From Candidatus Magasanikiibacteriota bacterium (lineage in GTDB: Bacteria > Patescibacteriota > Patescibacteriia > Magasanikbacterales > UBA10146), in NCBI GenBank assembly GCA_016212585.1, contig JACRFU010000075.1:1-37444 (forward strand): 37,444 nucleotides of DNA. Reading direction: 5' to 3'. Below, in pieces: positions 18,907 through 37,444 of this stretch. Under the pieces are notes generated by a model. It searched no databases and was not told the DNA's origin. It saw only the letters and a program-made list of their open reading frames with translations. The stretch's first letter is position 1. Each line of letters starts with the position of its first letter. Position numbers and translations under genes: made by a program.

Positions 18907-18977
18907 TTTCATTAAAATGTCAAATCTGGTCAAAAAATCTTATCCACAAGTCAAAATTTCATTCGGCGGCAAACCCA

Positions 18978-20030: not shown

Positions 20031-20031
20031 A

Positions 20032-21634: not shown

Positions 21635-21643
21635 CCCTTGCTG

Positions 21644-21805
21644 CATAAGACTTGTCCCCAAATAGGCTTTCGTTACGAAATTGCCAAATTTTGAGGCAAA
21701 ATTGTTGAATAAATTTTGAGGTTTAACAGCGGTTAAGCTGAAAAATTTTGAAATAATTTTGACCGAAATTTGGCAATTGCAGCAGAAATGCTATTGGGGG
21801 ACAAG
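21644..21805. repeat. Long-hairpin intergenic repeat (LHR), subfamily B, copy B1
   Basis: It has the same invariant core as the A copies (TTGTTGAATAAATTTTGAGGTTTAA-CAGCGG-TTAAGCTGAAAAATTTTGAAATAATTTT). Its arms differ from the A copies but are mutually complementary: CTTGTCCCCAAATAG / CTATTGGGGGACAAG, and AATTGCCAAATTT / AAATTTGGCAATT. It lies between convergent gene ends. Confidence 0.85.
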
Positions 21806-21834
21806 GATATAGATGCGCGAGATTGCGTGAACAT

Positions 21835-23600: not shown

Positions 23601-25193
23601 ATGTGCACTCCATTCAAAAAAATCACCACACCCCTCCCCTATCTTGCCATTGCAGGGTATTTTATCTACCTCCAATGGGGCGCTGGGTTTGCCGATCCTG
23701 ATTCTTTTTACCACGCAGGCGTAAGCACTATCATGGGGCAAAAACAAATAATACTCAAACAATTCGCATGGTTTACTTTTAACAATTTCAACGGACAGTT
23801 TGTTGATCATCAATTTCTCTATCATCTTCTCCTTGCGCCTTTCACTTTATTTATATCTCCTCTTGTAGTGACTAAGACAATCGCTGTAATTCTTGCGGTG
23901 CTTTTCTTTGTGGTGTTTGATTTTATATTAAAACGAACAGGAATCCGCAATCGTCTCATCTATATTTTTATTCTCCTCACCACCAGCCCATTTATAGTGC
24001 GCCTGAATCTTGCCAAAGCAGGCTCGCTCGCGCTCATATTGTTATTGTTAGGTACATACGGCTTGTGGCATAAAAAATATACATTATTATTTTTCACGAC
24101 ATTTTTATATGTCTGGACGCACGCGGGTTGGATGAGTATGGGTGTAGTGTACTTCACATGGATACTCGCACGAATCCTTACCAAAGATAATCCACTACCC
24201 TCTATTTATGGAAACAACATTTTTGGCATGAGTACAAAATATATACGCACACTTTTCATCGATCGCGCGTTATGGGCTATAGGCGGCGGGGTGCTGTTTG
24301 GAATAGTATTCAACCCATACTTTCCTAACAACCTCAAATTTTATTGGCAACAAGCAGTGCAGATTGGACTCGTGAATTATCAGTCAGTAATTAATGTTGG
24401 CAACGAGTGGTACCCATTCCCTATTGCCAAACTTTTCACAGAACTTATTGGTATTTGGATTGTGTTCGCCGTCGCACTCGCGGCATTTATTTTTCTCTGC
24501 CTATGCACTCAACAAAATGAACTCCGGCCGCGCACCCGCGCGCTTGCGGTCAAACTATTGCATAGCACCATACTTGCGGGACTATGGTTTACGCTCACAC
24601 TCAAATCCGCGCGCTATGTAGAGTACCTCGCGCCAACCGCGCTGATTGCGGGAGCCTTCTTGATGGAAATATCTCTTCGACTTGGCGCTTGGACATATCT
24701 AAAAAAATATGCGCAACCGCACCGCGCACTGTACCGCATGCTCGCGTTTGCACTGCTCATTTTTTATATCGGTTGGAGCGCGTACGAATCGCAAGCGATC
24801 CGCGTTTTCTTAACGCAAACATTGCCATGGACCCGCTTTGAAAAATCAAGCGCCTATCTTGCCGCGCATACGCCTGATACAACGCTCGTGTTCCACACCA
24901 ATTGGAGCGACGCGCCGCTTTTGTTTTTCCACAATACGCACAACCGTTATATGGCAGGGCTTGATCCAACCTTTTTCTATCTTGCCAACCCAGAACTCTT
25001 TCGCCGTTATATAGATATCGCGCAAGGGAGTGTTCATAAACCAGCAGAAGCAATCTTCAATGCCTTCAACACTCCGTATATACTCATCACGCTCCCACAA
25101 GATGGGAACCTCAACTATCAATTAAAAAAAGAGCCACGCGCACAAGCTCTTTTTCATGACGATAATTCAATAGTGTATCGCTACACACCGTAA
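23601..25193 (+). CDS. Polytopic GT-C-fold-like membrane glycosyltransferase (family uncertain)
   Basis: 530 aa with ~11-13 TMs. The first extracytoplasmic loop has an acidic motif, GFADPDSFYHAG. After the last TM there is a ~140-aa soluble C-terminus containing LVFHTNWSDAPLLFFH. The GT-C assignment rests on architecture and loop-1 DxD, not on a recognised HMM. Confidence 0.55.
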   Translation: MCTPFKKITTPLPYLAIAGYFIYLQWGAGFADPDSFYHAGVSTIMGQKQIILKQFAWFTFNNFNGQFVDHQFLYHLLLAPFTLFISPLVVTKTIAVILAVLFFVVFDFILKRTGIRNRLIYIFILLTTSPFIVRLNLAKAGSLALILLLLGTYGLWHKKYTLLFFTTFLYVWTHAGWMSMGVVYFTWILARILTKDNPLPSIYGNNIFGMSTKYIRTLFIDRALWAIGGGVLFGIVFNPYFPNNLKFYWQQAVQIGLVNYQSVINVGNEWYPFPIAKLFTELIGIWIVFAVALAAFIFLCLCTQQNELRPRTRALAVKLLHSTILAGLWFTLTLKSARYVEYLAPTALIAGAFLMEISLRLGAWTYLKKYAQPHRALYRMLAFALLIFYIGWSAYESQAIRVFLTQTLPWTRFEKSSAYLAAHTPDTTLVFHTNWSDAPLLFFHNTHNRYMAGLDPTFFYLANPELFRRYIDIAQGSVHKPAEAIFNAFNTPYILITLPQDGNLNYQLKKEPRAQALFHDDNSIVYRYTP

Positions 25194-25194: not shown

Positions 25195-25668
25195 TTACTT
25201 ATACTGCGAGGAATAATAATCATACAGCGGATTAACCGTCGCTTTGAGCAGATAATTGAACACCAAACGAGAAATACCATACGCGGAAAGCACAATCGCA
25301 ATGCCAATGACGCCATTGGTAATCAAACCTTTGGCGGTTTTGATTTTGTCCTCTTCTCCACCGGCGGTAAGCCACAAAAAGCCCGCGTACACCACCAGTC
25401 CCACAAACACCATACCGAGCAACGAGAGTGAAACATAAATAATATACGCTACTGTCTGGCGCGGGTCTTGATTTTTAAGCCCCGTGCTTTTGCCCGCGGT
25501 GTCTAATTGTTTGTTAATATCCGCGGCGGCGTTGGTTTGCGGTTCTTGCGCGAGCTGATAGGCGGCGCGCGCTTGCGGCGCTTGCAGTAGTAATGCAAAA
25601 ACAGCTCCAACCACCCATAAAAGAAAAGGGCTGGCGGCAAAAAAATGTTTGCGTAATGATGTTTGCAT
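25195..25668 (-). CDS. TrbC/VirB2-like (CPR T4SS_pilin-type) small membrane protein, paralog 1 of 10
   Basis: I prefer the ATG at 25668 (MQTSLRKHFFAASPFLLWVVGAVFALLLQAPQARA signal), which avoids a 73-nt overlap with paralog 2. Core: LLGMVFVGLVVYAGFLWLTAGGEEDKIKTAKGLITNGVIGIAIVLSAY. Confidence 0.75.
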   Translation of the reverse strand: MQTSLRKHFFAASPFLLWVVGAVFALLLQAPQARAAYQLAQEPQTNAAADINKQLDTAGKSTGLKNQDPRQTVAYIIYVSLSLLGMVFVGLVVYAGFLWLTAGGEEDKIKTAKGLITNGVIGIAIVLSAYGISRLVFNYLLKATVNPLYDYYSSQYK

Positions 25669-25700
25669 ATAACGCGTTGAAAATCTTCTTTGAAAATTAA

Positions 25701-26120
25701 TTAAGGCTTCACGCCCGGTGTTGAGGATGCCGGCTGTGTGAGAGATGACTGCACAATAGCTCCAACAATCCATTTGGTGATACCAAAAGACGATAACACA
25801 ATAATCAGCCCAATAATAGCGTTGCGAAGATATTTTATGGCGGTTTTTATCTGTTCTTCATCCCCGCCGGCGGTAAGGTACTGATAGCCCGCAAAGACCG
25901 TAAAAGCCAAAAATAAGACGCCCAATATCCCGAGCGACGCGGATATAATGTTGCCTACTGTCTGGGCAAGCGAGGTATCATCCCCAGCAGTGTTATACTT
26001 TGCGTTTTTCCCCACCCCTTGAAGTAAACTTTGCGCGGTTTCCGGCGTTTCCGCGTCAAGGCGTAACGGAAAAACTAACAACAAACTAAACGCAAGAAAA
26101 GCTAATAAAGTAAATTTCAT
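25701..26120 (-). CDS. TrbC/VirB2-like small membrane protein, paralog 2 of 10
   Basis: 139 aa. Signal peptide (LLAFLAFSLLLVFPLRLDA). Core: ILGVLFLAFTVFAGYQYLTAGGDEEQIKTAIKYLRNAIIGLIIVLSSF. Confidence 0.75.
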   Translation of the reverse strand: MKFTLLAFLAFSLLLVFPLRLDAETPETAQSLLQGVGKNAKYNTAGDDTSLAQTVGNIISASLGILGVLFLAFTVFAGYQYLTAGGDEEQIKTAIKYLRNAIIGLIIVLSSFGITKWIVGAIVQSSLTQPASSTPGVKP

Positions 26121-26212
26121 ATCAACAATATTTGAATAAGATTCAAAATAATCTTATGGATACCACATTGAGAAACCGCATTAAGAATTCTTTAATGATG
26201 CATCTTCCATGA

Positions 26213-26635
26213 TTACTTAGCTGACGGGCTTGCCGTGGTTGTTGTCGCGTTGGTGAGCCTTGTTACGATAAAGTTAGTCAGCACATACGCCGCGAGCACC
26301 ACCGCCATGCCAATGGTCGCCATAATGATAATATCTTTTGCTTTTTTGGCCTGTGTCTCGTCTCCGCGCGCGATCATCCAAATATACCCCCCATAGACGG
26401 TTAAAATTAAAAATATAACTCCCACGAGCGTCAAAGCGATATTAATAATGCCGCCAACCTGCTTTTCAAAAGCGCCCTGTTCAAGTTTGCCTGTGCCGCC
26501 ATATACGCCGCTTCCAACTTTTTCCAATCGTCCTTGAAGCGTAGGAGGAGGATCAGCTGCAAATACAGGAGACACTGTCCACACAACGCTATATACAACA
26601 AAAAAAACAAACAGGAGAGAGAAAACATATTTCAT
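26213..26635 (-). CDS. TrbC/VirB2-like small membrane protein, paralog 3 of 10
   Basis: I prefer the start at Met13 of the track ORF (MKYVFSLLFVFFVVYSVVWTVSPVFA signal). Core: LVGVIFLILTVYGGYIWMIARGDETQAKKAKDIIIMATIGMAVVLAAY. Confidence 0.75.
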   Translation of the reverse strand: MKYVFSLLFVFFVVYSVVWTVSPVFAADPPPTLQGRLEKVGSGVYGGTGKLEQGAFEKQVGGIINIALTLVGVIFLILTVYGGYIWMIARGDETQAKKAKDIIIMATIGMAVVLAAYVLTNFIVTRLTNATTTTASPSAK

Positions 26636-26698
26636 AATTATGTTTACTATATTGAATTTAAATAGACTCATTTTAAAGATGTTGGAAATGTTTGTGCA

Positions 26699-27100
26699 CT
26701 AACCAGGAGCATTAAATACTTGGGTTGCCACCAGGTAGGTGGCGGTGTAAGAAAGCAAAATAATCACCATGCCAATGGTCGCCATAATGATAATATCTTT
26801 TGCTTTTTTGGCCTGTGTCTCGTCTCCGCGCGCCGTCATCCACAAAAACCCGCCATAGAGCATCAAAAGAAAAAACGCGACGCCGACAAAAGAAAGTGCC
26901 ACTTGAATAATTTGTCCAACTCTTTTTTCAGGATCGCTTGAAACATCCAACCCCGCGCCTCCAGAGCCAGCTGCTTGTTTAAATTGTTTGTCCGCGTCGC
27001 CAAAGTTAAGCGCGGCGCGCGCTGGAAATACGCTTCCCAACCACACTGCCGGCACCGCGGTCGCGATCATTATACTCGCAATGCTTTTATTCAAACGCAT
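26699..27100 (-). CDS. TrbC/VirB2-like small membrane protein, paralog 4 of 10
   Basis: 133 aa. Signal (IMIATAVPAVWLGSVFPARA). Core: FVGVAFFLLMLYGGFLWMTARGDETQAKKAKDIIIMATIGMVIILLSY. Confidence 0.78.
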   Translation of the reverse strand: MRLNKSIASIMIATAVPAVWLGSVFPARAALNFGDADKQFKQAAGSGGAGLDVSSDPEKRVGQIIQVALSFVGVAFFLLMLYGGFLWMTARGDETQAKKAKDIIIMATIGMVIILLSYTATYLVATQVFNAPG

Positions 27101-27104
27101 AAAA

Positions 27105-27662
27105 TTATTTAACCGCAGTTACCACATTACTAAACACGAATGAAGTAATAATACCCGCGGCGGCAACAATAATAATGCCAATGACCGCGTCTATGATAAT
27201 ATCTCTTGCTTTTTTGGCCTGCGTCTCGTCTCCGCGCGCCATCATCCACAAAAACCCGCCATAGAGCATCAACAGGAAAAACGCGATGCCTACGAGTGAA
27301 AGCACCACTCCAATAATCTTTCCGGTAATTCCCGCGACGGTTCCGCTTGTTTTTATTCCCGCGGCTCCGGCTGTTGCGTTGAGACCGTAGTTTCCTCCGC
27401 TAATTTCTCCTGTTTTACTGCTCTCAGTTTTATTTTGTGAACACTCACTAAACACACTGCATGGCTGATTAAGTTTTAAATTTCCGCTACATTGACTAAT
27501 AGTGGCATTGTCAAGACAAAAATTATTGCTATTCACACAACATCCTTCGTTTGTTGCATAAACCAACTGAGGAAAAGTTACCAAACTTAAAATATTTACC
27601 ACTGAAAAAACTAAGGCTGAAAAAACTAAAATGTTGCGCTTCATAAGTAAATTTGTTTCCAT
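27105..27662 (-). CDS. TrbC/VirB2-like membrane protein with an N-terminal six-Cys module, paralog 5 of 10
   Basis: 185 aa. A signal is followed by NEGCCVNSNNFCLDNATISQCSGNLKLNQPCSVFSECSQ. Core: LVGIAFFLLMLYGGFLWMMARGDETQAKKARDIIIDAVIGIIIVAAAG. An alternative start exists at Met7 (27644). Confidence 0.75.
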   Translation of the reverse strand: METNLLMKRNILVFSALVFSVVNILSLVTFPQLVYATNEGCCVNSNNFCLDNATISQCSGNLKLNQPCSVFSECSQNKTESSKTGEISGGNYGLNATAGAAGIKTSGTVAGITGKIIGVVLSLVGIAFFLLMLYGGFLWMMARGDETQAKKARDIIIDAVIGIIIVAAAGIITSFVFSNVVTAVK

Positions 27663-27722
27663 AATAATTTTCTTCTATCTGATTGCGTGTGCAATAAAAC
27701 ACAAGAAAGTTATTATTCAAAC

Positions 27723-27767
27723 CCTCTCGCCAGAGCGCGTCATGCGTGCGCGCGCCCCGGCAAGAGG
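27723..27767 (-). terminator. GC-rich hairpin in the 181-bp gap that splits the pilin array (possible terminator or attenuator)
   Basis: The minus-strand stem CCTCTTGCC / GGCGAGAGG is 9 bp with one G-U. It encloses a second GCGCG/CGCGC stem and is followed only by a short TTT. This is the only long intergenic gap inside the array. Confidence 0.35.
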
Positions 27768-27843
27768 CAGATATATCTGAAAAATTCCGCGCGTTTGTTA
27801 TGAATCAATATCGCGCTCTAACAACTTTAATTTTATTTTTATC

Positions 27844-28272
27844 CTAGGATGTGGCCTTTACCAAACTGTCTATGACGAACTTGGCGATGGCGTACGCGGA
27901 CAATATAATCGCCAAACCAATCACGCCGGCGATAATGCGTTTTTTTGCTTCCCCTGTTTTTTCTTCATTTCCTCCGGCAGTCATCCATTCAAAACCGCCA
28001 ATAAGGATAATGACAACAGCCACAATGCCGAGCAAACCTAGCGCGACGTTGATGATGTTGCCAACGGTTACACGAATATCTTTATTGCCCAAACCTGTTG
28101 ATCCACTTAGACTTTCACTATTAGAGTTTCCAATACCTTCAATGCCCAGCGCCTTGTTGCCGTTAGTAGTATCAATAGGAACTGGCGTATACGCCGATGC
28201 CAACGCAGGAACCAACATTGTCCCCAATAAGCTCGCGGTTGCTAAAAATGAAATAATTTTTTTCTTTGTCAT
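27844..28272 (-). CDS. TrbC/VirB2-like small membrane protein, paralog 6 of 10
   Basis: I prefer the ATG at 28272 (MTKKKIISFLATASLLGTMLVPALASA). The track's TTG-initiated MKGGEN extension is the translated Shine-Dalgarno region (AAGGGGGTGAAAAC-ATG). Core: LLGIVAVVIILIGGFEWMTAGGNEEKTGEAKKRIIAGVIGLAIILSAY. Confidence 0.8.
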   Translation of the reverse strand: MTKKKIISFLATASLLGTMLVPALASAYTPVPIDTTNGNKALGIEGIGNSNSESLSGSTGLGNKDIRVTVGNIINVALGLLGIVAVVIILIGGFEWMTAGGNEEKTGEAKKRIIAGVIGLAIILSAYAIAKFVIDSLVKATS

Positions 28273-28320
28273 GTTTTCACCCCCTTTCAAATAGTAAAGA
28301 TAATTTGCTTGTCAAAAAAT

Positions 28321-28710
28321 TTATGTGGTAGCGCTCACCAAACTATTAATAACAAACTTGGCGATGGCGTACGCGGACAATATAATCGCCAAACCAATCA
28401 CGCCGGCGATAATGCGCTTTTTTGCTTCTCCTGTTTTATCTTCATTGCCTCCGGCAGTCATCCACTCAAAACCGCCAATCAGGATGATGACAACGGCCAC
28501 AATGCCGAGCAAACCCAATGCCACGTTGATGATGTTCCCAACGGTAACGCGAATGTCTTTTTGCCCCAAGCCGGTATACACGCCATAATTGACACCCAAC
28601 GCGTCTCCTTGAGAAATTGGCGGCGGCACAGGGTCAGCAAACACAGGAGCCGCCATCAAAAGCGTTAAAGCTCCTGTGGCAAACGCTGCTGCAATTTTTT
28701 TTGTATTCAT
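28321..28710 (-). CDS. TrbC/VirB2-like small membrane protein, paralog 7 of 10
   Basis: 129 aa. Signal (AAAFATGALTLLMAAPVFA). The C-terminal ~80 aa are almost identical to paralog 6 (…DIRVTVGNIINVALGLLGIVAVVIILIGGFEWMTAGGNEDKTGEAKKRIIAGVIGLAIILSAYAIAKFVI…). Confidence 0.8.
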   Translation of the reverse strand: MNTKKIAAAFATGALTLLMAAPVFADPVPPPISQGDALGVNYGVYTGLGQKDIRVTVGNIINVALGLLGIVAVVIILIGGFEWMTAGGNEDKTGEAKKRIIAGVIGLAIILSAYAIAKFVINSLVSATT

Positions 28711-28747
28711 AAAGAATTTAAATTAAGTAATAAATTTCTAAAATGTT

Positions 28748-29170
28748 TTATAACTTTCCCCCAAGCGCGTCAAAAACAAACTTAAGCAAAATATAACTAG
28801 TCAAAATTACGATAATGCCTATGCCTGACCACATAAACACATCTCTTCCTTTCTTTATTTTATCAGGACTGCCTCCAGAGGTCAACCACAAAAAACCGCC
28901 ATACACAAACATAATAAGCGCGATGGAGCCAATTATCCCCAGCACCGGCTTGATCACCCGCTCCCCCACAATGACAAATATGTCCGTTGTGCCCAATGGA
29001 TTGTCCAAATCAACAGTTGCCTGTCCGGCGGCGCGCGCAAAATGCACTGCGCCAACTATGCCTAAAAACAAAGCGCATAACCCAGCGCAGAGAATAAATT
29101 TTCTTTGCAGTACGAAATAATTTTTTGAGGCAATCGTGCTGTTTTGTAAATTCTTGGAGTGCATTTTCAT
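28748..29170 (-). CDS. TrbC/VirB2-like small membrane protein, paralog 8 of 10 (start uncertain)
   Basis: 140 aa. Core: IIGSIALIMFVYGGFLWLTSGGSPDKIKKGRDVFMWSGIGIIVILTSY. The first codons (MKMHSKNLQ) lie inside a copy of the 43-nt repeat, so the start codon may be repeat-derived or a downstream non-ATG start may be used. Confidence 0.7.
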   Translation of the reverse strand: MKMHSKNLQNSTIASKNYFVLQRKFILCAGLCALFLGIVGAVHFARAAGQATVDLDNPLGTTDIFVIVGERVIKPVLGIIGSIALIMFVYGGFLWLTSGGSPDKIKKGRDVFMWSGIGIIVILTSYILLKFVFDALGGKL

Positions 29171-29188
29171 AAGGTGATGTCCATAGGC
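29146..29188. repeat. Solo copy of the 43-nt arm of the foldback element
   Basis: GTAAATTCTTGGAGTGCATTTTCATAAGGTGATGTCCATAGGC matches 1604-1646 at 40/43 positions in the same orientation. It overlaps the 5' end of pilin paralog 8. Confidence 0.75.
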
Positions 29189-29194
29189 TTCATA

Positions 29195-29842
29195 TTATTG
29201 CAATGCTGAAAAAACAAATTGCACCAGTATATAGCTGGCAAAAATTACCACAAGCCCCAACACTGTCCAGAGCATTATCTTTGCGGACGAACGCGTGCGT
29301 TCTTCATTGCCTGCCGCGGTCATCCACATTATACCGGCGTAGATGAGCAACACGAGCGCGATTGAACCCACCACAGAGAGTGCGGACTTAATTATTGTGC
29401 CAATAAACCCTTGTACCGAATAATTGCCTAATGGATCAAACAACGCGCCAATTTTAAAAGTCCCGCCCCCCACAGGCTTAAAGCTTGGAGGAGTACCTAT
29501 TTTCCCTAAAGTGCCCGCACCTCCTCCTGTTTTTTTCTTTGCACTGGTGCTTTTGCATTCTGAATATAAACTGCATTTACTGTTTGCCTTACTGTCAAAA
29601 TTTTCTTCCCCTCCAAGCGCGTCCGCACACTTGGCATCAACCTCCGTCTTATTATCATAATTTGCCTTTATTTCCGCGCACGCAATTTCTCCTTGCTTGG
29701 ATTTTGGAGGGAAACAACAAATTGTCTCTTGTTTGTTTTCACTCTTATTTTCAGCAAGCACAGAAAACGGTGATATTAAAGACAATACTGAAACAACAAA
29801 AATGAGTGAGATCGTGTTAAAAAAATGTTTATTAATCCGCAT
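29195..29842 (-). CDS. TrbC/VirB2-like membrane protein with an N-terminal Cys-rich module, paralog 9 of 10
   Basis: 215 aa. A signal is followed by ETICCFPPKSKQGEIACAEIKANYDNKTEVDAKCADALGGEENFDSKANSKCSLYSECKS. Core: VVGSIALVLLIYAGIMWMTAAGNEERTRSSAKIMLWTVLGLVVIFASY. Confidence 0.75.
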   Translation of the reverse strand: MRINKHFFNTISLIFVVSVLSLISPFSVLAENKSENKQETICCFPPKSKQGEIACAEIKANYDNKTEVDAKCADALGGEENFDSKANSKCSLYSECKSTSAKKKTGGGAGTLGKIGTPPSFKPVGGGTFKIGALFDPLGNYSVQGFIGTIIKSALSVVGSIALVLLIYAGIMWMTAAGNEERTRSSAKIMLWTVLGLVVIFASYILVQFVFSALQ

Positions 29843-29845
29843 ACT

Positions 29846-30391
29846 CTATTTTTTATCTGTTGAATCCGGCAATTTAACCTCCAAAAGATTATTTTGATTT
29901 TGGTTTTGCGCGGGGACCAAACCTTGAATGACAAACCGCACCAACATCTGTGCGCCAAAGGTAATGAGAAGACCAATGACCGCTCCCAAAATAGCGTCCC
30001 GCCCTTTTTTGACCATTTCCGGACTGCCCGCGGAAATAAGGAGCAAGACTCCGCCATAAATAAAGAAAAGAAACGCCGCGGCGCCGATGATAGCAAATGT
30101 GGCGTTTGAATAATTTACAAAAAGCGCAAGAAACGCGCCAACGTCGCGGCATCCGCCTCCCGGCGTGCCTTCACTGTCCGCGCATTTTGGAATGAATAAA
30201 CTTTTTCCCGGACCGCCTTCCGGACTTCCCAAATTAGTTGGCGCGCCAAAAACCGCAGGTTTTGACGCAGAGGTCGCCTGAACTAAAATAACAGCTAAAG
30301 CATCATTTGCGGAAAATAAAAAAACTCCACCCAAAACAAAATTCAACACAACACTCGCCATGAAAACAAATTGTTTTATTGTATCCCTCAT
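29846..30391 (-). CDS. TrbC/VirB2-like membrane protein, paralog 10 of 10 (first in transcription order)
   Basis: 181 aa. Signal/anchor, a two-Cys loop (IPKCADSEGTPGGGCRD), core IIGAAAFLFFIYGGVLLLISAGSPEMVKKGRDAILGAVIGLLITFGAQ, and a Gln/Asn-rich tail. Confidence 0.7.
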   Translation of the reverse strand: MRDTIKQFVFMASVVLNFVLGGVFLFSANDALAVILVQATSASKPAVFGAPTNLGSPEGGPGKSLFIPKCADSEGTPGGGCRDVGAFLALFVNYSNATFAIIGAAAFLFFIYGGVLLLISAGSPEMVKKGRDAILGAVIGLLITFGAQMLVRFVIQGLVPAQNQNQNNLLEVKLPDSTDKK

Positions 30392-30406
30392 AATCCCACA
30401 TTTTTA

Positions 30407-30567
30407 GGGTCTGTCGCCAAATGCGCTTTTGCAGTGAAATGCGCAGATTTCGAGACAAAATTGTTGAATAAATTTTGAGGTTTAATTGCAAATTAAGCTG
30501 AAAAATTTTGAAATAATTTTGTCCGAAAGATGCGCATTGCAACCAAAATGGCATTCGGCGACAGACC
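30407..30567. repeat. Long-hairpin intergenic repeat (LHR), subfamily A, copy A2 (complete)
   Basis: The termini GGGTCTGTCGCCAAATGC and GCATTCGGCGACAGACC are complementary (one A-C). The inner arms AATGCGCAGATTTCGAGACAAAATT / AATTTTGTCCGAAAGATGCGCATT are complementary. The invariant core is at 30461-30513. It fills the gap between the SBP gene stop (30571) and the pilin paralog 10 start (30391). Confidence 0.9.
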
Positions 30568-30570
30568 ATT

Positions 30571-31965
30571 TTAAGGCCCAATTGTTTGCCCTACGCGCGC
30601 GGCAGCCTGCTGGAGCGCTTTTTTATATGCGTCCGGGTCGTTCAATGCCGCTTCGCTGGTTACTCCATCTATCATCTGCAAAAACGCTGTGTCCGCGGCG
30701 GCCGCGTCTCGCCCCTTATACCAACTCTTGGCGGTCAACGCGCTCTCTGCAAACGGGCCAATGACCGCGTCGTCTTTTTGCCCAGCCACCAGCGCGCGCA
30801 ACGCGGACGGCTTTTTTGTTTTGTTCAAGTAACTTTGCACCTGTTTTTCTTGCGCGGCAAATTGTATAAAATCCCACGCCTCATTTTGATGCGCGCTTTT
30901 CTTTGCAACGGTCTCAACCCAATAACTTGCAAAATTCACCGGAACATCAGGATTCAACTGTGGCAAAGGCGTTACTGAATAATTCAATTTTGGCGCGCGC
31001 GCCTCAACCTGCGGGATATTATATGAATAGCCAAAATAAAATCCTGCTACACCGCGCGTAAACGCGTCCAGAGAATTAGGCATGGTTTTATTCCATGTAT
31101 AGCCTTTCTTTGTTGTGTTTGCAAAATCGGTGTAAAAACGCAATGCCTGCTCGCCCGGGCCAACCTCTTGAGTGTAGCCTTGAGGAATCGCTTGAAATTC
31201 CGGTGTGCCGTCGTCAAGTGCCATTGTGGCGCCGCCCTGCATCATTAAAACAGACAAAATATCCGCCGCACGCGCCACATTGGCACTCCCGCCTATTGCC
31301 GATCCCGCTTGCACCACCTTATTATCCGTATTGACTTTAGCCATTGAAATAACATTATCCAAAAATTGATCCCATGTTTTGGGCGGCGTGCCAATGCCGG
31401 CTTTGTCCAGCATATCTTTGTTGTAAAAAAGCGCGAGCGTATCCACCGCAAATGGCAATCCCCAAATTTTTTCTTCACTTGTTGCGGCGTCTCTGCGCAC
31501 CACATCCCCTGCCACAACGCCAACAAAATTATCTTTTATTTGTTTAATTGTTGGAGACGGAATCGTTTTGGTGGTTACCACCAACTGTTTGCTGATGGTC
31601 CCCTCTATGCTCTGGAAAGTTGATTTAACAGAAGCGGGCATAGGCGCGATTTTGCTCTGATACTTGCCAACCCATGTATTTTGAATTGAAAATAAATCTG
31701 GTCCGCGGTCTTCCGCGAGCGCGTTGATGAGTTCTTTTTCAAATTCGTCCGGCAAAAGTTTTCTGTAGGTAATTTTTATATGCGGGTGCAGTTGTTGATA
31801 CGCGCCAATAATTTCCGCCATGCTGTCTGAATCGTCAAACACGCGCCAATAGTTAAGCTCCACCGGCTTAATAGCGTCTTGTTGTGCTTGCGACAAACCT
31901 TTACACCCCAACCCTGAAGTGAGTAAAAAAACCGTGAGAAAAGAAAAAATAAATATACGCCGCAT
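30571..31965 (-). CDS. ABC-transporter extracellular solute-binding protein, family 1 (sugar-type), probable lipoprotein
   Basis: I prefer the ATG at 31965 (MRRIFIFSFLTVFLLTSGLGCKG, lipobox-like), 1 nt after the galU stop. Family pattern: NYWRVFDD, DLFSIQNTWVGKY, WGLPFAVDTLALFYNKDMLDKAGI..PPKTWDQF. No permease or ATPase genes occur in the window. Confidence 0.8.
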   Translation of the reverse strand: MRRIFIFSFLTVFLLTSGLGCKGLSQAQQDAIKPVELNYWRVFDDSDSMAEIIGAYQQLHPHIKITYRKLLPDEFEKELINALAEDRGPDLFSIQNTWVGKYQSKIAPMPASVKSTFQSIEGTISKQLVVTTKTIPSPTIKQIKDNFVGVVAGDVVRRDAATSEEKIWGLPFAVDTLALFYNKDMLDKAGIGTPPKTWDQFLDNVISMAKVNTDNKVVQAGSAIGGSANVARAADILSVLMMQGGATMALDDGTPEFQAIPQGYTQEVGPGEQALRFYTDFANTTKKGYTWNKTMPNSLDAFTRGVAGFYFGYSYNIPQVEARAPKLNYSVTPLPQLNPDVPVNFASYWVETVAKKSAHQNEAWDFIQFAAQEKQVQSYLNKTKKPSALRALVAGQKDDAVIGPFAESALTAKSWYKGRDAAAADTAFLQMIDGVTSEAALNDPDAYKKALQQAAARVGQTIGP

Positions 31966-31966: not shown

Positions 31967-32860
31967 TTATATTTTAAGTGAGCGTAGATAATCTTTGATG
32001 CCTTTTGATAAATCCGGATGGCGGAGCGCAAAATCAACCTGCGCTTTGATGTACTCCAATTTATTGCCGGTATCATAATATCGTCCATTTTGTATCTCCG
32101 CCGCGTACATTGGATAGCCGGATTTCATGAGTTGCGTAATCGCATCTACAAGCCAGATCTCTCCGCCCCTGCCCGGCGCGAGCTCTTGCAAATAAGGAAA
32201 AATCTTGCCGGGCAAAATATACGCGCCATGAGCCGCTAGATTTGATGGTGCGTCTTTGGGGTCTGGTTTCTCCATAATTGATTTGATGCAAAACACGCTC
32301 TGTTCTCCTTTTATTTTTTCCACATCCGCAATACCGTAACGCGCGACATCTTCACGATTTTTGATCCGCACCGCTGAAATAACTCCTCCGCCATATTTTT
32401 CATAGACTTTCATCATCTGCGAAAGGCGCCCTGGTTCCGCGTAAATAAGTTCGTCGCCCCAGAGCACTACAAAATCTTCACTCTTGTCTATAAGATGCCG
32501 CGCGCAATACACCGGCGTGCCGTTGCCATAAGGGCCTTTTTGGCGCACATACACAAAATTTGCCATTTCTGCGATGCGCTGGACTTCTCGCAACTGTTTT
32601 ATCTTGTCGTCTGCTTTAAGCCGCGCCTCCAGCTCAAACGAATGATCAAAATGATCTTCTATAGAGCGCTTATTGTAGCCCGTTATGATAATTATGTCCG
32701 TAATCCCGGCCTCCACCGCCTCTTCCACCACATACTGAATAATTGGCTTATCTATAAGAGGAAGCATTTCTTTCGGCATTGCTTTGGTGGCAGGCAAAAA
32801 GCGCGTGCCCAAACCCGCCGCGGGTATAATTGCTTTGGTTATTTTTCTTTTTTCCGCCAT
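31967..32860 (-). CDS. galU: UTP-glucose-1-phosphate uridylyltransferase
   Basis: I prefer the ATG at 32860 (MAEKRKITKAIIPAAGLGTRFLPATKAMPKEMLPLIDKPIIQYVVEEA). Later motifs include VLWGDEL and the EKP region (MEKPDPKDAPSNLAAHGAYIL). The track's 40-aa N-terminal extension is a translation of repeat B2. Confidence 0.9.
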   Translation of the reverse strand: MAEKRKITKAIIPAAGLGTRFLPATKAMPKEMLPLIDKPIIQYVVEEAVEAGITDIIIITGYNKRSIEDHFDHSFELEARLKADDKIKQLREVQRIAEMANFVYVRQKGPYGNGTPVYCARHLIDKSEDFVVLWGDELIYAEPGRLSQMMKVYEKYGGGVISAVRIKNREDVARYGIADVEKIKGEQSVFCIKSIMEKPDPKDAPSNLAAHGAYILPGKIFPYLQELAPGRGGEIWLVDAITQLMKSGYPMYAAEIQNGRYYDTGNKLEYIKAQVDFALRHPDLSKGIKDYLRSLKI

Positions 32861-33018
32861 AAGACTTGTCCCTAAATACGATTTCGTTACGAAATTGCCA
32901 AATTTTGAGGCAAAATTGTTGAATAAATTTTGAGGTTTAACAGTGATTAAGCTGAAAAATTTTGAAATGATTTTGACCAAAATTTGGCAATTGCAGTAGA
33001 AATGGTATTTTGGGACAA
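32858..33018. repeat. Long-hairpin intergenic repeat (LHR), subfamily B, copy B2
   Basis: The left end CATAAGACTTGTCCCTAAATAC... is shared with B1 and includes the complement of the galU ATG. The right end is ...GTATTTTGGGACAA. Arms AATTGCCAAATTT / AAATTTGGCAATT. Invariant core with loop CAGTGA. Confidence 0.85.
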
Positions 33019-33040
33019 ATCTTTAGATTGTATTGTGGAT

Positions 33041-33049
33041 AGTATAGCA
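33041..33049 (-). promoter_or_regulatory. Candidate extended -10 promoter (TGCTATACT) reading into repeat B2 and galU
   Basis: The minus strand reads GTGCTATACT, which is TG-n-TATACT. There is no convincing -35. If active, repeat B2 would be transcribed as the galU 5' leader. Confidence 0.3.
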
Positions 33050-33109: not shown

Positions 33110-34327
33110 TTAAAGCAAAGGGATAAACAAACTAGCATCCTGATCTTCCGTGGTTGCGTAAAAATATATGCAAAAAACTGAAAAATCTTTATAGTTCTCT
33201 TTAAAAACGCGAGAAATACGACACTTGTTTTGGTTCAATTTTACTTCCATGGCCACGTGGTTTCCCTCCCCGATATCTAAAATAAAATCCACTTCATTTT
33301 GATTTTTATCACGCCAATATTGGGGCAAAAAATTATTTTTAACAAATTGCGTATAACATCCGTTTTTAAGCAAAAAACCCTTATCTTGGTCATCGCGCTT
33401 ATGTAAAGTTTGAAAGTTATTCACCATATGATTTCTCAAACCTGTGTCAAAAAAATACACTTTTTGATTTTTTACAATCTCTTTTCTTTTATTTTTATAA
33501 AAAGGGCGCGAAAAGCCTGTTATATATGTTTTATTAAGAAAATTAAGATATTTTTTCAATGTATGATATGAAAATTCGGAAATCTCAGTCAATTCTTTAT
33601 ACTCAATCATATTGCCGATTTGCAAAGCAAGTGCCCTAATTAATTTGCCCAATTTGTAATCATCTACCAATCCCAAAATATCTTTTACATCTCTTAAAAA
33701 ATAGGTATTGTAAATATTTTTCAAGACCGCTCTTTTTTCTTCCTCGGTTTTTGATAACACGACAGCGGGGTACCCTCCCCAGATAAGATACTCCTCAAAA
33801 TATTTGTTCAAAGTTTCACGTTGTTTTTTTGTTATCAAAGGAACACTAATGCGTTTTAAATCAATTTTATTTTTTTCATAAAACGTGTAATACGCGCGAT
33901 CGCGGGAGAGAAGATATTCACCAAAATCAAAGGGAAATATTTCCAAGACAAACACCCTACCCACCAAATACTTTGCCGCCTTAAGAGTGAGATCCAGAGC
34001 AGATGACCCTGAAATGATTATCTTCGTATGATGCGTATCATACACATACTTCAAAAGTTTGCCTCCGTTTTTCGCGTATTGAAATTCATCAATAAAAACA
34101 TAGTCCTTGCCCGCAATATAGGTACTGATAAATGCTTTTATATTATTTTCAAAAAGGTTGAGAACTTCTTGATCTTCAAATGTCAAAAAAACGTCATTTT
34201 TTAGATCGCCAAAAATTCTTTTAATAGTGGTTGTTTTCCCGCATTGACGCGGTCCAATAAGCGCAATTATCTCCGGTCTTTTTAGATACTTGAGAATTTC
34301 ATCCTCAATTTTTCGCTTAATATACAT
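33110..34327 (-). CDS. AAA+ ATPase of the AAA_14/DUF4143 type
   Basis: 405 aa. Walker A is IGPRQCGKTT and Walker B-like is YVFIDEFQY. The C-terminal region is typical of DUF4143-containing ATP-binding proteins (…YFFDTGLRN…EVDFIL…). Confidence 0.8.
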   Translation of the reverse strand: MYIKRKIEDEILKYLKRPEIIALIGPRQCGKTTTIKRIFGDLKNDVFLTFEDQEVLNLFENNIKAFISTYIAGKDYVFIDEFQYAKNGGKLLKYVYDTHHTKIIISGSSALDLTLKAAKYLVGRVFVLEIFPFDFGEYLLSRDRAYYTFYEKNKIDLKRISVPLITKKQRETLNKYFEEYLIWGGYPAVVLSKTEEEKRAVLKNIYNTYFLRDVKDILGLVDDYKLGKLIRALALQIGNMIEYKELTEISEFSYHTLKKYLNFLNKTYITGFSRPFYKNKRKEIVKNQKVYFFDTGLRNHMVNNFQTLHKRDDQDKGFLLKNGCYTQFVKNNFLPQYWRDKNQNEVDFILDIGEGNHVAMEVKLNQNKCRISRVFKENYKDFSVFCIYFYATTEDQDASLFIPLL

Positions 34328-34366
34328 ACAAAATCAAAGGTTACTCTAAAATTTAACTATACATCA

Positions 34367-34395
34367 ATTATAGCGTAAATCAATTTTACCTACAA
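34367..34395 (-). promoter_or_regulatory. Candidate sigma70-type promoter for the AAA ATPase gene
   Basis: The minus strand reads TTGTAG (34395-34390), 17-nt spacer, TATAAT (34372-34367). The ATG is 40 nt downstream. Confidence 0.4.
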
Positions 34396-34417
34396 GACCC
34401 CTCCCCGTTAGACCCTA

Positions 34418-35842
34418 TCACGAGGGAAAGTCGCTTGGTTTGGCTCCGGTATTAAAGGGGCACTGCGCGTCGTTCTTGGGACTGGTCAAATTTTCAACTC
34501 CCATACTGCGCATTGTCTGTACGGTCTTGACCCCGTTGCCGTAGCTTGCGGCATGAAAAATCTCCGGATGAGCTTCCCACGCTTTTGTATCGCACCCATA
34601 ATTTTTAATCGCCTTGCGCAAAGCCCCGGGACCGCTTCCGTTATTAAACAACAACATGTGGAGCTTGTCATTGGCTCCCGCGCTCCCGCACATGCCGTTG
34701 ATGGTATTCAACGCCATTTTAAAATGCCCTTGTGTCACAATCGCGGTACTGACCGCTGGATTAGTGAGCCCGGGATTTACACAATATTCATCCCATCCAA
34801 CTTTCTTCAACACTTTATCACAATAGCCTTTCAACACCTGAAAAAGTCCTGTGGCTGATCCTTTTGTATTTTTTGCCGCTGGGTTCAACCGCGACTCATG
34901 AAACGCGAGTACCTTGTACACGCGCCAATCCATGCCGATGCACCCGGCAAATTTCTGAAACAAAGCATCGTAGGTGGTATTACTTAATGCTTTGGGAGTA
35001 CCTGTAGGCTCCCCACGATCGGGGAACTCCGCGTCTTCAAGCGAGACATTTTCAACAACAGGAATACGCAATGACTGAAACCTCACCAAATCCGGATTGA
35101 TGATATACAAGACTAAATACGAACCAATCACCAAGACCAATCCAACCAAAGCCCCCTTAATGCGCTCAAGAGCGCTGGATCTTTGTGCTGAATTGCCGCC
35201 AGATATAATCCACTGAAATCCGCCGACCATAATCATCACCGCGGAAATGACTCCCGCAATGGAAATTAAAAAACGATACAGCGCCGCCAGATATTCTGCC
35301 AGATACGAAACATATACAACGCCGCCGCCTGCCTCCTCTTGCTGTGGTTGGGGTGAGGAGAAACCTTTGAATCCAGGAATGTTGATTGCCAGTGAAGGGG
35401 CTACAGGTTTCCATTCAATTTTTTTTGTGATACCGCCCTCACCATCCGGTTTAGAGCCTTCGGGGGTTTTCCACACACACTGCTCCGTTGAAAAATTATT
35501 TTTAATAAGATAATTGGAAAACGCGGAACAATCATCTTGAGAAGGAGTAAGCCGATTAGTATCTAAACCAAGACCACTTTGCAATTTGCAGGTGCACGGG
35601 CTCCATGTGTCAGATTTATTTATTTCAACGCACGAACTAAAAATTTTTTCCGTATTTCCTTTGAGATTTGTCAACTGCGCGCCGGGTAATTCACTATTGC
35701 AACCAAGAGATGCTACTTTGACATTTACGCTTATACCATCTGAAAGTGTGCATTGGCAGTAGCCAAAATCAGCCTGCACGGAAAGTGGCAAAAAAGTTAT
35801 AAGTATAAAAAATGGCAAAACAAATTTGAAACCGTGTAGCAT
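34418..35842 (-). CDS. Three-part secreted/membrane protein: N-terminal Cys-rich domain + TrbC/VirB2-like pilin domain + C-terminal SLT-family lytic transglycosylase
   Basis: 474 aa. Signal (FVLPFFILITFLPLSVQA). The Cys-rich ~110 aa include YCQCT...LGCNS...SSCVE...SPCTCK...DDCSAF...EQCVW. Pilin-like core: IAGVISAVMIMVGGFQWIISGGNSAQRSSALERIKGALVGLVLVIGSY. SLT motifs: VLAFHESRLNPAA (catalytic Glu-Ser), SATGLFQV, LLFNNGSGPG. Confidence 0.8.
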   Translation of the reverse strand: MLHGFKFVLPFFILITFLPLSVQADFGYCQCTLSDGISVNVKVASLGCNSELPGAQLTNLKGNTEKIFSSCVEINKSDTWSPCTCKLQSGLGLDTNRLTPSQDDCSAFSNYLIKNNFSTEQCVWKTPEGSKPDGEGGITKKIEWKPVAPSLAINIPGFKGFSSPQPQQEEAGGGVVYVSYLAEYLAALYRFLISIAGVISAVMIMVGGFQWIISGGNSAQRSSALERIKGALVGLVLVIGSYLVLYIINPDLVRFQSLRIPVVENVSLEDAEFPDRGEPTGTPKALSNTTYDALFQKFAGCIGMDWRVYKVLAFHESRLNPAAKNTKGSATGLFQVLKGYCDKVLKKVGWDEYCVNPGLTNPAVSTAIVTQGHFKMALNTINGMCGSAGANDKLHMLLFNNGSGPGALRKAIKNYGCDTKAWEAHPEIFHAASYGNGVKTVQTMRSMGVENLTSPKNDAQCPFNTGAKPSDFPS

Positions 35843-35853
35843 AACTATTTTGC

Positions 35854-37296
35854 TTATGGATTCTTGATTTCATCCCAAGAAATCACCTTGTACTCGGTTC
35901 CAACAGGAAACGCCGGCGGCGGACCGTAAGTGAGGTTGGCGTCATAGGTGGCGTTGGTATTTTTGTAGCCGGAAATCGTCGCGCCGCCGCCAGAAACCCA
36001 ACTCCATGTCCACACGCCATTGCTGATGACGCTTCCATACACCGTAAGGCTCGTCAAGATATTGCCCATATAATAAAACCTTTGCGCGCTGCCGTTTTGG
36101 GCGATGAGTGCCGCGTCTATCTCCATTGAAGCAGGTGAATAACGGGGCAACAAGACATCTTTTTGCGCCATCAAACCAAGAGCATCACTCCCGTCTTTTG
36201 TTGAATATACAATTGATTGCGGAATAATAATTGAAGTATAGGTGTTTTGATTCACCGGAAAACGACCGGAACCAATGGTCGCGCGGCCTTTGATGACGCC
36301 ATTGACCCATACTTGATCCTCAAAAAACATAAACCCATTGGAGGGAATGGCATAATTCCCTTGCGAGACCTCTGTTTTGATATCATACGATTCATAATGT
36401 TTCTTGCCATTGATATCCATACCCCACCCGGGCGAAGGCAGTGCGTTGAGCGCGGTTACTTTATACAAATTAAAAGTGCTGTTTTCTTGAAACACCACAT
36501 GATACCCGTATTTCCCTGAAGCGGATCGATAAAATCCGCCATTTTGCGCTCCTGTTTTTATTTTCGCAAGATCAATGGTAATGCCATTAAAATCAAACGC
36601 GGGAACCGGATACTTCCAGAAACTCTTAGGGCCTCCTGCACCCCACACACCGGGTTTGGTGGTGTTATTGCACCCAGACCCATGCATTGGCTGGCATTGA
36701 TAGGTTGATTTGGCGCTCGTAATAGGCGCGTCCGCCTGGCCGTCAAACCGTATGCCGCCGTTCGCGTGCAATTTACCGTGCACTACCTCGGTATTGCCAA
36801 TCCACACATCGCTATTGGTTAAAAAACTATAATCACTCAAAGACGGAAACCCAATACGCACTTTGAGCGTGCGTTTGTTTTTTTGGTTTGCAAGCGTGTA
36901 GCCGGTAGATTTGATGGTGATAACACTTCCCCCATTGGGCGGCGCGGTAATATCTAAACTAAATTTCCCTACGGCAGTGCCATTTTTATCTTTGTAATCA
37001 TGCACATATGGACCCGGCGCGCCGGTGCCGTCTTGCAAATCTGCCGAATCATGCGCCAAATGCCAGCGATAATAATTGATTCCGGCCTCCGCAATCTGAA
37101 ACGCGAGCTCGCTCTGATTCTTGGCACGCGCCGCCCTGTTTTCCATTACGGCAAAATTGGTCATGCCTATAACGAGCGTGGTGATTGCCATTGACCCAAA
37201 CACCAATACAATGAGCAAAATGTTGCCGCGCCGATGATGACGCAAATGCCTCAAAAAACTGTTTCGTAATTCACAAATTATGGAAAAAACGCGCAT
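35854..37296 (-). CDS. PilX-like type IV (pseudo)pilin-type minor pilin with a large beta-rich C-terminal domain
   Basis: 480 aa. The N-terminal segment RRGNILLIVLVFGSMAITTLVIGMTNFAVMENRAARAKNQSELAFQIAEAGINYY matches the PilX_N pattern: a hydrophobic helix followed by E.R.....Q....A...AEAG. The remainder is Gly/Asn/Thr-rich with no recognised domain. Confidence 0.6.
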   Translation of the reverse strand: MRVFSIICELRNSFLRHLRHHRRGNILLIVLVFGSMAITTLVIGMTNFAVMENRAARAKNQSELAFQIAEAGINYYRWHLAHDSADLQDGTGAPGPYVHDYKDKNGTAVGKFSLDITAPPNGGSVITIKSTGYTLANQKNKRTLKVRIGFPSLSDYSFLTNSDVWIGNTEVVHGKLHANGGIRFDGQADAPITSAKSTYQCQPMHGSGCNNTTKPGVWGAGGPKSFWKYPVPAFDFNGITIDLAKIKTGAQNGGFYRSASGKYGYHVVFQENSTFNLYKVTALNALPSPGWGMDINGKKHYESYDIKTEVSQGNYAIPSNGFMFFEDQVWVNGVIKGRATIGSGRFPVNQNTYTSIIIPQSIVYSTKDGSDALGLMAQKDVLLPRYSPASMEIDAALIAQNGSAQRFYYMGNILTSLTVYGSVISNGVWTWSWVSGGGATISGYKNTNATYDANLTYGPPPAFPVGTEYKVISWDEIKNP

Positions 37297-37303
37297 ATAT
37301 TTA

Positions 37304-37444
37304 GGGTCTGTCGCCGAATGCGCTTTTGCAGTGAAACGCGCAGATTTCGAGACAAAATTATTGAATAAATTTTGAAGTTTAACAGCAGTTAAGCTGAAAA
37401 ATTTTGAAATAATTTTGTCCGAAAGATGTGCATTGCAGTCAAAA
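37304..37444. repeat. Long-hairpin intergenic repeat (LHR), subfamily A arms with a B-type loop, copy A3. The right end is truncated by the window edge.
   Basis: GGGTCTGTCGCCGAATGCGCTTTTGCAGTGAAACGCGCAGATTTCGAGACAAAATT, then the core with two substitutions and loop CAGCAG, then AATTTTGTCCGAAAGATGTGCATTGCAGTCAAAA. It starts 7 nt upstream of the PilX-like start codon. Confidence 0.85.

Follow-up and report, generated by a model that had tools for sequence, protein, structure and literature searches.

Patescibacteria are monoderm and mostly uncultivated epibionts, for which type IV pili and type IV secretion systems (T4SSs) with several pilins are essential (PMC10633639, PMC11665869). Their VirB2-like pilins of family PF18895 are encoded in arrays; 441 arrays of 2 to 11 genes have been reported (Quinonero-Coronel et al. 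2025, PMC12102498), and such arrays were also described by Wang et al. in 2023 (PMC10633639). Most genomes bearing VirB2 have no recognizable VirB1, and other glycosidases may substitute for it (PMC12102498). Both the pilins and the T4SS of Southlakia epibionticum are essential, what this T4SS does is unknown (PMC10633639, PMC11665869, PMC12857230), and the lysozyme and peptidase proteins linked to it are separate from the pilins (PMC10633639). A review goes no further than a "potential to elaborate conjugative pili" (PMC12857230). Here, we analyzed contig JACRFU010000075.1 (37,444 nucleotides [nt], called the window below), whose sequence is like that of candidate phyla radiation (CPR) bacteria and whose source is a Magasanikbacteria-like CPR/Patescibacteria bacterium from groundwater. 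The window encodes a protein of 474 amino acids (aa) in which a PF18895 pilin-type hairpin is followed by an SLT-type lytic transglycosylase domain. To judge from its sequence, this fusion protein is a specialized membrane-anchored peptidoglycan hydrolase on an unusual pilin-type carrier. Wall enzymes mounted on such hairpins are an obvious candidate for the missing VirB1 function; the T4SS survey did not settle the identity of the wall-opening glycosidase (PMC12102498).

Several described systems resemble parts of the fusion protein. In monoderm bacteria, PrgK of pCF10, TraG of pIP501, CwlT of ICEBs1, and TcpG of pCW3 likewise tether an SLT or lysozyme-type domain to the membrane, and the job proposed for hydrolases of this type is to open the wall for a surface machine (PMC12102498, PMC12857230). 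These proteins often add a peptidase or an amidase, an activity that in relatives of the fusion protein is supplied by a neighboring paralogue. However, they are held by a single N-terminal transmembrane helix or a lipid anchor and are encoded inside transfer operons, whereas the fusion protein has an internal pilin-type hairpin behind a predicted cleavable signal peptide, two termini predicted to lie outside, and a second ectodomain, and its gene is outside any virB4 cluster. We found no transfer genes adjacent to the fusion gene among its neighbors in the window or among those of the orthologue at locus L001. VirB1/VirB1* of Agrobacterium, P19, BfpH, and the PilT transglycosylase of the R64 thin pilus share with the fusion protein the family-1 fold of glycoside hydrolase family 23 (GH23) and the ES motif. 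Enzymes of this type are dedicated transglycosylases encoded with filament genes. Those of the VirB1 type are soluble, periplasmic proteins of diderm bacteria, and specific sequence affinity of the fusion protein to them was found neither in NCBIfam nor in a search of plasmids. Its closest solved matches are EmtA/MltE and T7 gp16, to which it can be aligned at the catalytic Glu and at the GLxQ motif, with an identity of only ~18%. Of these two, MltE is a lipoprotein of the outer membrane and gp16 a protein of the virion, and neither has a hairpin or Cys-rich domains. The free PF18895 pilins of CPR bacteria have the same signal peptide, two long hydrophobic helices, GGF...GG(N/D) turn, and basic loop as the fusion protein. 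In contrast to it, those of the window are only 129 to 215 aa long as listed, and they lack a neck, which in the fusion protein consists of PxLxIxIPG before and NPxLVxF after the hairpin.

The gene and the parts of its product are listed below. Model-based assignments refer to an AlphaFold2 (AF2) model with its predicted local distance difference test (pLDDT) scores.

34418..35842, minus strand: whole gene for the 474-aa predicted hairpin-anchored lytic transglycosylase (open reading frame [ORF], identical independent contig, full-length orthologues).
35771..35842, minus strand: aa 1-24, Sec-type signal peptide with hydrophobic core at aa 7-20 and predicted cleavage between SVQA and D (hydropathy and sequence).
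35408..35770, minus strand: aa 25-145, variable beta-rich N-terminal ectodomain with 8 Cys (AF2 strands, pLDDT 55-84).
35075..35407, minus strand: aa 146-256, conserved neck and PF18895 hairpin module (Pfam, AF2, hydropathy, homology to free pilins).
34982..35074, minus strand: aa 257-287, acidic low-confidence linker of 31 aa (pLDDT <50 for aa 251-277).
34553..34981, minus strand: aa 288-430, family-1 (GH23) SLT domain with 5 invariant Cys (Pfam PF01464, PDB profiles, Foldseek, conservation).
34895-34897, minus strand: codon of the putative catalytic Glu316.
34421..34552, minus strand: aa 431-474, helical tail at the C-terminal end of the enzyme domain; contains the conserved Cys461 (AF2 pLDDT 69-89, alignment).
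34418-34420, minus strand: stop codon of the fusion gene.

On the minus strand, the ORF runs from an ATG start through all 474 codons with zero internal stops, and the plus-strand translation of the same interval is broken by many stops. The groundwater run of origin also yielded a Logan contig that matches positions 34300-36000 without any difference; this integrity evidence is at the level of assembler contigs, and that includes the word depth of ~20x. The best homologue, P0002 from Candidatus Magasanikbacteria GW2011_GWC2_45_8, is 79% identical over its full length, and six contigs (ENA, NCBI, and Logan) encode it completely. In seven orthologues with 30-80% identity from separate metagenomes, the signal peptide, hairpin, linker, and SLT domain all lie in one frame. 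Since the whole architecture is kept across this range of identity, a frameshift or misassembly is excluded within the contig-level data, and the fusion gene is genuine. The explanation that two genes were joined artificially, or that the gene is a pseudogene, was thus rejected. We give it practically no probability against an independent contig of ~20x word depth, a single frame kept in orthologues from several samples and assemblers, and the presence of both domains in one matched stretch or protein in 127 representative clusters. The initial annotation had described a single polypeptide of three parts (signal peptide plus Cys-rich domain, pilin hairpin, SLT enzyme) with no visible frame break, and we found the same.

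The AF2 model was built from the alignment of the seven sequences and has a mean pLDDT of 68.6. It contains a beta-rich N-terminal domain, two long antiparallel helices, a disordered linker at aa 251-277, and a helical C-terminal domain whose pLDDT is 75-91 over most of its length. The Cys-rich N-terminal domain gave no Pfam match at E<=1. It diverges fast, with 17-35% identity in orthologues other than the closest one, and the hairpin and SLT domain diverge slowly, with 35-92% identity among the seven. Eight Cys residues precede the hairpin and six follow it, with none in the hairpin, the loop, or the linker, and the five within the SLT domain are invariant in the seven orthologues.

The central module is a pilin hairpin by homology. 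T4SS_pilin (PF18895) was matched at aa 184-239, with 27.8 bits for the whole protein, just above the cut-off of 26.6, and with 31.8 bits when the hairpin was scanned by itself. The order of elements within aa 146-256 is the neck motif APSLAINIPGF, helix 1, the basic loop GGNSAQRSSALERIKG, helix 2, and NPDLVRF. The helices span aa 179-213 and 218-248 in the model (31-35 residues each), and hydropathy places hydrophobic helices at ~aa 184-212 and 227-250. The loop GGNSAQRSSALERIKG between them carries a charge of +3/-1. In a BLASTP comparison, the hairpin matched one of the window's free pilin paralogues with E=6e-13 and 31% identity over 61 residues. The match of the hairpin alone to TrbC/VirB2 (PF04956) was below threshold (E=0.064, 13.9 bits versus a cut-off of 27.9); three of the free pilin paralogues themselves reach only E 2e-4 to 8e-4 on that family. 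NCBIfam gave a sub-threshold match to a "pilin-like conjugal transfer protein" of a Mycoplasma integrative and conjugative element. The hairpin module alone had no match among PDB sequences at E<=10, and a Foldseek search with the full-length model returned, besides the SLT matches, only generic helical hairpins such as ATP synthase subunit c.

A joint alignment separated the enzyme carriers from the free pilins. The free pilins end about 10 residues past helix 2, whereas the fusion protein goes on for 220 aa. In the carriers, helix 1 is preceded by PxLxIxIPG and (F/Y)LAEY, helix 2 is followed by NPxLVxF, and these neck motifs are not present in the free pilins, which suggests a fate differing from that of the free pilins. 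Among 150 relatives, conservation is 90% or higher at P149, P156, Y184, G208, G234, L245, N249, P250, and L252. Thus, conservation of the carrier formed by hairpin and neck equals or exceeds that of the catalytic site. We classify the hairpin as a genuine pilin homologue that belongs to a separate subfamily.

The enzyme domain was matched by SLT (PF01464) at aa 303-415 with 21.9 bits, just above the cut-off of 21.3, and SLT matches in relatives reach E 1.5e-21. It contains the motifs HESRLNP (with E316), TGLFQV (aa 331-336), and LFNNGSGPG. E316-S317 and T331-G-L-F-Q335 are invariant in the seven orthologues, and in the 150 relatives conservation is 90% or higher at both E316 and G332. A profile search of PDB sequences found the T7 gp16 transglycosylase (4.5e-7) and EmtA/MltE (9e-5), followed by phiKZ gp144 and Slt70, and the catalytic Glu of the domain lines up with the ESR motif of T7 gp16. 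Foldseek against PDB placed E. coli MltE/EmtA at the top, with a probability of up to 0.98 and a target TM of ~0.55, ahead of MltC, phiKZ gp144, and Slt. Because Foldseek ranks MltE first and the PDB profile matches align the Glu, we assign the C-terminal domain, by sequence and fold, to the generic family-1 (GH23) lytic transglycosylases. NCBIfam gave weak MltF/Slt matches, and a VirB1-type match to the fusion protein was not found in it. A tblastn search of the SLT domain against 72,556 plasmids, which addressed affinity to VirB1/TrbN, gave no match at 1e-3. The initial annotation had quoted the E-S, GLFQV, and NNGSGPG motifs, all of which are found in the protein, and had proposed checking the domains with hidden Markov models (HMMs), which place both PF18895 and PF01464 above their gathering cut-offs. 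It had called the enzyme VirB1-like; that description is right for the GH23/SLT fold and unsupported as a statement of specific VirB1 affinity.

The fusion is not singular, as a search for relatives showed. An exhaustive HMMER search with the orthologue profile over 1.84 billion representative proteins returned 52,015 matches at E<=1e-3, 12,860 at E<=1e-10, and 800 at E<=1e-30. When 162 proteins were scanned with local HMMs of the hairpin module and the SLT domain, both were present in 130, always in the order hairpin then SLT, and the linker between them had a median length of 37 aa. The hairpin-then-SLT arrangement occurs in 127 of the best 150 clusters of 50%-identity representatives, and wall-enzyme domains of at least six other kinds are found on this hairpin. 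Repeated alignment-based homologue searches added only the fragments P0018 and P0163 and returned P0139 again. A scan of genome contigs for an SLT peptide pattern recovered mostly unrelated SLT genes (Prevotella and others), with true two-domain relatives only at L009-L011. The fusion protein belongs to a large CPR family. The claim that no example had been characterized fits the literature as far as we could follow it: a description of a pilin-hydrolase fusion was not found, with coverage incomplete, so that we say "not found" rather than "not published." Hairpin-carried wall enzymes in CPR bacteria are apparently an undescribed family.

The regions around the hairpin vary widely between relatives. 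Between 1 and 380 aa precede the hairpin module, and 30 relatives have an extra C-terminal extension of 120-320 aa past the SLT domain, mostly of 240-320 aa. Four proteins (P0124, P0126, P0139, and P0140) have two to four tandem hairpins in one polypeptide; P0139, encoded at positions 1361-3217 of L057, has four hairpins and then an SLT domain. These are covalently linked "pilin oligomers" and hint at side-by-side packing of hairpins. We took a Pfam census of 75 members chosen to be rich in long and non-SLT proteins, so that its domain frequencies are biased. It counted T4SS_pilin in 61, SLT in 46, Lipase_GDSL_2 in 34, VanY in 4, Peptidase_M15 and Peptidase_M23 in 3 each, Amidase_2, NLPC_P60, and Peptidase_C39_2 in 2 each, and Amidase_5 and 3D in 1 each. 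P0010 joins the hairpin to VanY. A neighbor at L006 joins it to Amidase_2 and shares the Cys-rich N-terminal domain and hairpin with its SLT partner, and a neighbor at L007 joins it to NlpC/P60. At L010, a GDSL-hairpin-SLT gene adjoins an esterase-like-hairpin-VanY gene, so that enzyme cargo is also N-terminal to the hairpin. Hairpin-enzyme genes are often adjacent pairs with complementary bond specificities. No cargo is as well conserved across the 150 relatives as the neck residues. These comparisons point to the hairpin and neck as a reusable carrier for swappable wall enzymes (glycosidase, amidase, peptidases, and esterase) at either terminus.

O-acetylation at C6 of N-acetylmuramic acid (MurNAc) blocks lytic transglycosylases; SGNH-type Ape esterases remove the acetyl group, and this de-O-acetylation is a prerequisite for transglycosylase action. 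The GDSL/SGNH domains that 34 of the 75 census members have in addition to hairpin and SLT domain resemble Ape1-type O-acetyl-peptidoglycan esterases, a likeness from which esterase specificity in these relatives can only be presumed, and the fusion protein itself has no GDSL domain. By analogy, the GDSL/SGNH cargo may act as a de-O-acetylase that helps the SLT domain in relatives that have both.

Three features adjoin the fusion gene or lie near it.

35854..37296, minus strand: upstream gene, 480 aa, PilX_N-like N terminus, minor-pilin-like (PilX_N match sub-threshold, E=0.022).
33110-34327, minus strand: AAA_14/DUF4143 ATPase gene between the fusion gene and a galU-like gene; also in L008, not in L001-L004.
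25195..30391, minus strand: pilin array with 10 free paralogues of PF18895, listed at 129-215 aa (Pfam).

The spacer between the PilX_N-like gene and the fusion gene, read directly, is 11 nt, and the two genes are probably cotranscribed. In L001, the genes run in one direction with gaps of 5-47 nt within the first block, in the order NUDIX, two N_methyl prepilin-type genes (657 and 225 aa), PilX_N-like gene (469 aa), and fusion gene. There the PilX_N-like orthologue follows the two N_methyl prepilin-type genes with gaps of 5-28 nt, and after the fusion gene come a galU-like nucleotidyltransferase, a solute-binding protein, and ten PF18895 pilins. N_methyl genes lie upstream in L001, L002, and L004. 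The gene order of the window equals that of L001 plus the AAA_14/DUF4143 ATPase gene after the fusion gene; this gene is an insertion/deletion polymorphism within the cluster. The pilin array lies ~4 kb downstream of the fusion gene on the same strand, with the fusion gene outside it, and is likewise downstream of the orthologue in L001-L003. We found no VirB4, VirB6, or VirD4 family member among the scanned window ORFs of at least 100 aa, and none within 10 kb of the orthologue in L001. Thus, the fusion gene stands last in an operon of pseudopilin-like genes of a type IV pilus and lies outside any T4SS locus; the initial annotation had compared it with classical type IV secretion loci.

Other lineages show a different neighborhood. 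In distant lineages, a ~410-aa protein, dsbA, one to three hairpin enzymes, radA, and often recG follow one another. Placement between dsbA and radA was found in L005 (10001-12455), L006 (1772-4596), L007 (17-2536), L010 (2004-5838), and L058 (2965-7157), and L011 has recG beside the gene. The unannotated ~410-aa protein was seen in L005, L010, and L058; its copy in L006 is cut by the contig end, and the L007 contig begins at the first hairpin gene, with the upstream genes outside it. Neighboring enzymes within this block differ in their catalytic domains. Among the loci of the dsbA/radA/recG type, a VirB4-like gene lies within ~10 kb only in L005. The 724-kb draft assembly of the closest relative was scored VirB4-negative (Table S1 of PMC12102498), a score that has little weight given the draft state.

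We consider it slightly short of an even chance that the fusion protein is a membrane-tethered transglycosylase that acts on the cell's own wall, most likely to make local gaps for filaments. According to this model, the protein would be exported by the Sec pathway and its signal peptide would be cleaved, after which the two-helix hairpin would sit in the cytoplasmic membrane, with the short basic loop toward the cytoplasm and both protein ends outward (N-out/C-out). The Cys-rich N-terminal domain and the disulfide-bonded SLT domain, the latter on a linker of ~30 residues, would then lie at the outer face of the membrane. Two oxidized ectodomains in the N-out/C-out arrangement are predicted because of the signal peptide, the two hydrophobic helices, the +3/-1 loop, and the restriction of Cys to the end domains. 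The dsbA gene that adjoins the hairpin-enzyme genes of relatives supports this topology, and the occurrence of enzymes at either end of the hairpin fits both ends being outside. The suggestion of the initial annotation that the wall-cutting activity would be anchored in the membrane agrees with this predicted arrangement, which puts the enzyme outside. Glu316 would cut the bonds between MurNAc and N-acetylglucosamine in the cell's own peptidoglycan and so open local gaps in the monoderm wall for surface filaments. The candidate filaments would be the type IV pilus of the same operon and possibly the VirB2-like pilins encoded nearby, and the hairpin and neck may double as a targeting or assembly module. 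The 11-nt gap to the PilX_N-like gene, the N_methyl genes in L001, L002, and L004, and the nearby pilin array support the link to filaments. If the topology is as predicted, the conserved hairpin and neck would be a new kind of N-out/C-out carrier that presents enzymes at both ends. The family is a testable handle on which pilin-like proteins stay in the membrane and which form filaments, and on whether CPR wall hydrolases are aimed at self or at the host.

Several observations weigh against this assignment. The Pfam scores of the fusion protein alone barely pass their thresholds. The type IV pilus operon context is found only in the close orthologues (the window, L001-L004, and L008), and in six more distant lineages the gene lies beside radA and/or recG, in five of them between dsbA and radA; this setting would suit a housekeeping autolysin and a filament-specific enzyme equally well. 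A link to a T4SS is unproven, since the draft assembly of the closest relative is VirB4-negative (PMC12102498). In addition, the conservation of hairpin and neck exceeds what a plain anchor needs and could instead reflect filament assembly.

These observations bear on how the alternatives are weighed. The fusion protein could belong to a general set of membrane-anchored enzymes that remodel the wall in growth and division, with the hairpin as a mere anchor and no link to a pilus or to secretion. This agrees with the synteny of dsbA, hairpin enzymes, and radA (with or without recG) in L005, L006, L007, L010, and L058, with recG in L011, with virB4 being nowhere within ~10 kb of those loci save L005, and with enzyme sets that span glycan, amide, and peptide bonds plus esterases, as complete wall turnover would need. 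However, the window and its close relatives couple the gene tightly to pseudopilin-like genes near a pilin array, the neck and hairpin residues are nearly invariant beyond the need of a mere anchor, and that anchor is clearly homologous to polymerizing-type pilins. We therefore regard a purely housekeeping role as somewhat unlikely. Release of the enzyme is very unlikely. The SLT domain would then be cleaved in the linker, as in VirB1*, and would act as a soluble or secreted factor or as a toxin aimed at competitors. Cleavage could plausibly take place in the disordered acidic linker (aa 251-277, pLDDT <50), and the processing of VirB1 is a known precedent. Against release, there is no conserved cleavage motif and no adjacent immunity-like gene, and the strict order of hairpin then enzyme with short linkers (median, 37 aa) argues for tethering.

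The homology between the hairpin and the free pilins, together with the pilin-like length of its helices (31-35 residues), is also what one would expect if the hairpin were extracted from the membrane and copolymerized as a minor subunit of a VirB2-like pilus, with both its end domains exposed on the surface of the filament, so that the enzyme attacked the host wall at the episymbiotic contact. Conjugative pili of solved structure have both pilin termini facing outward, and F-pilin displays short fusions at its C terminus. Free pilins of the array in the window already bear variable Cys-rich N-terminal extensions, and the proteins with two to four tandem hairpins imply side-by-side packing. 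Versions with SLT and GDSL domains look suited to O-acetylated foreign walls, and the T4SS and pilins of Patescibacteria are essential for epibiotic growth (PMC10633639, PMC11665869, PMC12857230). However, no evidence exists of PF18895 proteins forming pili, globular domains of 120 and 190 aa would be hard to pack in a tight helical filament unless they were at low stoichiometry or confined to the tip, virB4 is seldom near the genes, and the neck motifs are missing in free pilins. We judge this host-directed role, which the initial annotation had raised for an episymbiont, to be unlikely. Its extension, a "drilling pilus" in which VirB2-like filaments are decorated or tipped with hairpin-carried transglycosylase, amidase, peptidases, and de-O-acetylase to breach the host wall, is doubtful; if true, it would explain why a relaxase-less multi-pilin T4SS is essential for epibiotic growth. 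Local opening of the cell's own wall by a tethered enzyme therefore remains our preferred explanation.

The window has further features. An intergenic repeat of ~155 nt occurs in five copies on the minus strand (~2-143, 21610-21828, 30372-30589, 32829-33042, and 37265-37444), and its core, CAAAATTTTTCAGCTTAA, is exact in all five, where 0.01 would be expected by chance. RNAalifold folded four copies into a single long imperfect hairpin with 53 pairs, of which 11 show compensatory double changes. The operon of the PilX-like and fusion genes, the galU-like gene, and the pilin array each have a copy directly 5' of them. We considered the repeat as a conserved regulatory RNA that ties the operon to the pilin array and rejected this, since the repeat is absent from all related loci examined. 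A lineage-specific palindrome is more likely for the same reason; the repeat is probably of the kind of a repetitive extragenic palindrome or a miniature inverted-repeat transposable element. It also produces a spurious N-terminal extension of the ORF at 31967-32980.

Within the pilin array, the genes at 27844-28290 and 28321-28710 have a common stretch of 248 nt with 88% identity, and three pilins (26213-27662) have a common stretch of 159 nt that codes for an identical GDETQAKKA loop. These shared stretches suggest recent duplication or gene conversion. The Cys-rich N-terminal extensions are on the pilins at 27105-27662 and 29195-29842. The pilin ORFs at 25195-25773 and 25701-26120 overlap as listed, and the first probably starts at an internal Met. 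Directly beside the array and divergent from it, positions 23601-25193 of the plus strand encode a 530-aa polytopic membrane protein, which is conserved in L001-L003 and had no Pfam match even at E<=1. Our guess is that it could be a GT-C-like glycosyltransferase acting on pilins or on the wall.

The remaining genes lie farther from the fusion gene. On the minus strand, positions 21921-23333 encode a 470-aa protein with a weak Metal_resist match; it contains a direct repeat of 65 nt with 92% identity (22906-22970 and 23044-23108) that codes for Gly/Gln/Pro-rich low-complexity sequence. A metal/redox cluster occupies 5205-20418 of the same strand. Its products are two P-type (E1-E2) ATPases, of which one has an HMA domain; an HMA-DsbD_2-cupredoxin fusion (7998-9689); proteins of the DsbD-like, AhpC/Redoxin, and thioredoxin-like kinds; and, at 18978-20418, a sensor-repressor pair of the BlaR1/M56-BlaI type. 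At the other end of the window, positions 161-1159 of the plus strand encode an XerC/D-like tyrosine recombinase (Phage_integrase with a SAM-like N-terminal domain), which adjoins genes for tRNA-Arg(TCT) at 1243-1317 and tRNA-His(GTG) at 1856-1929.

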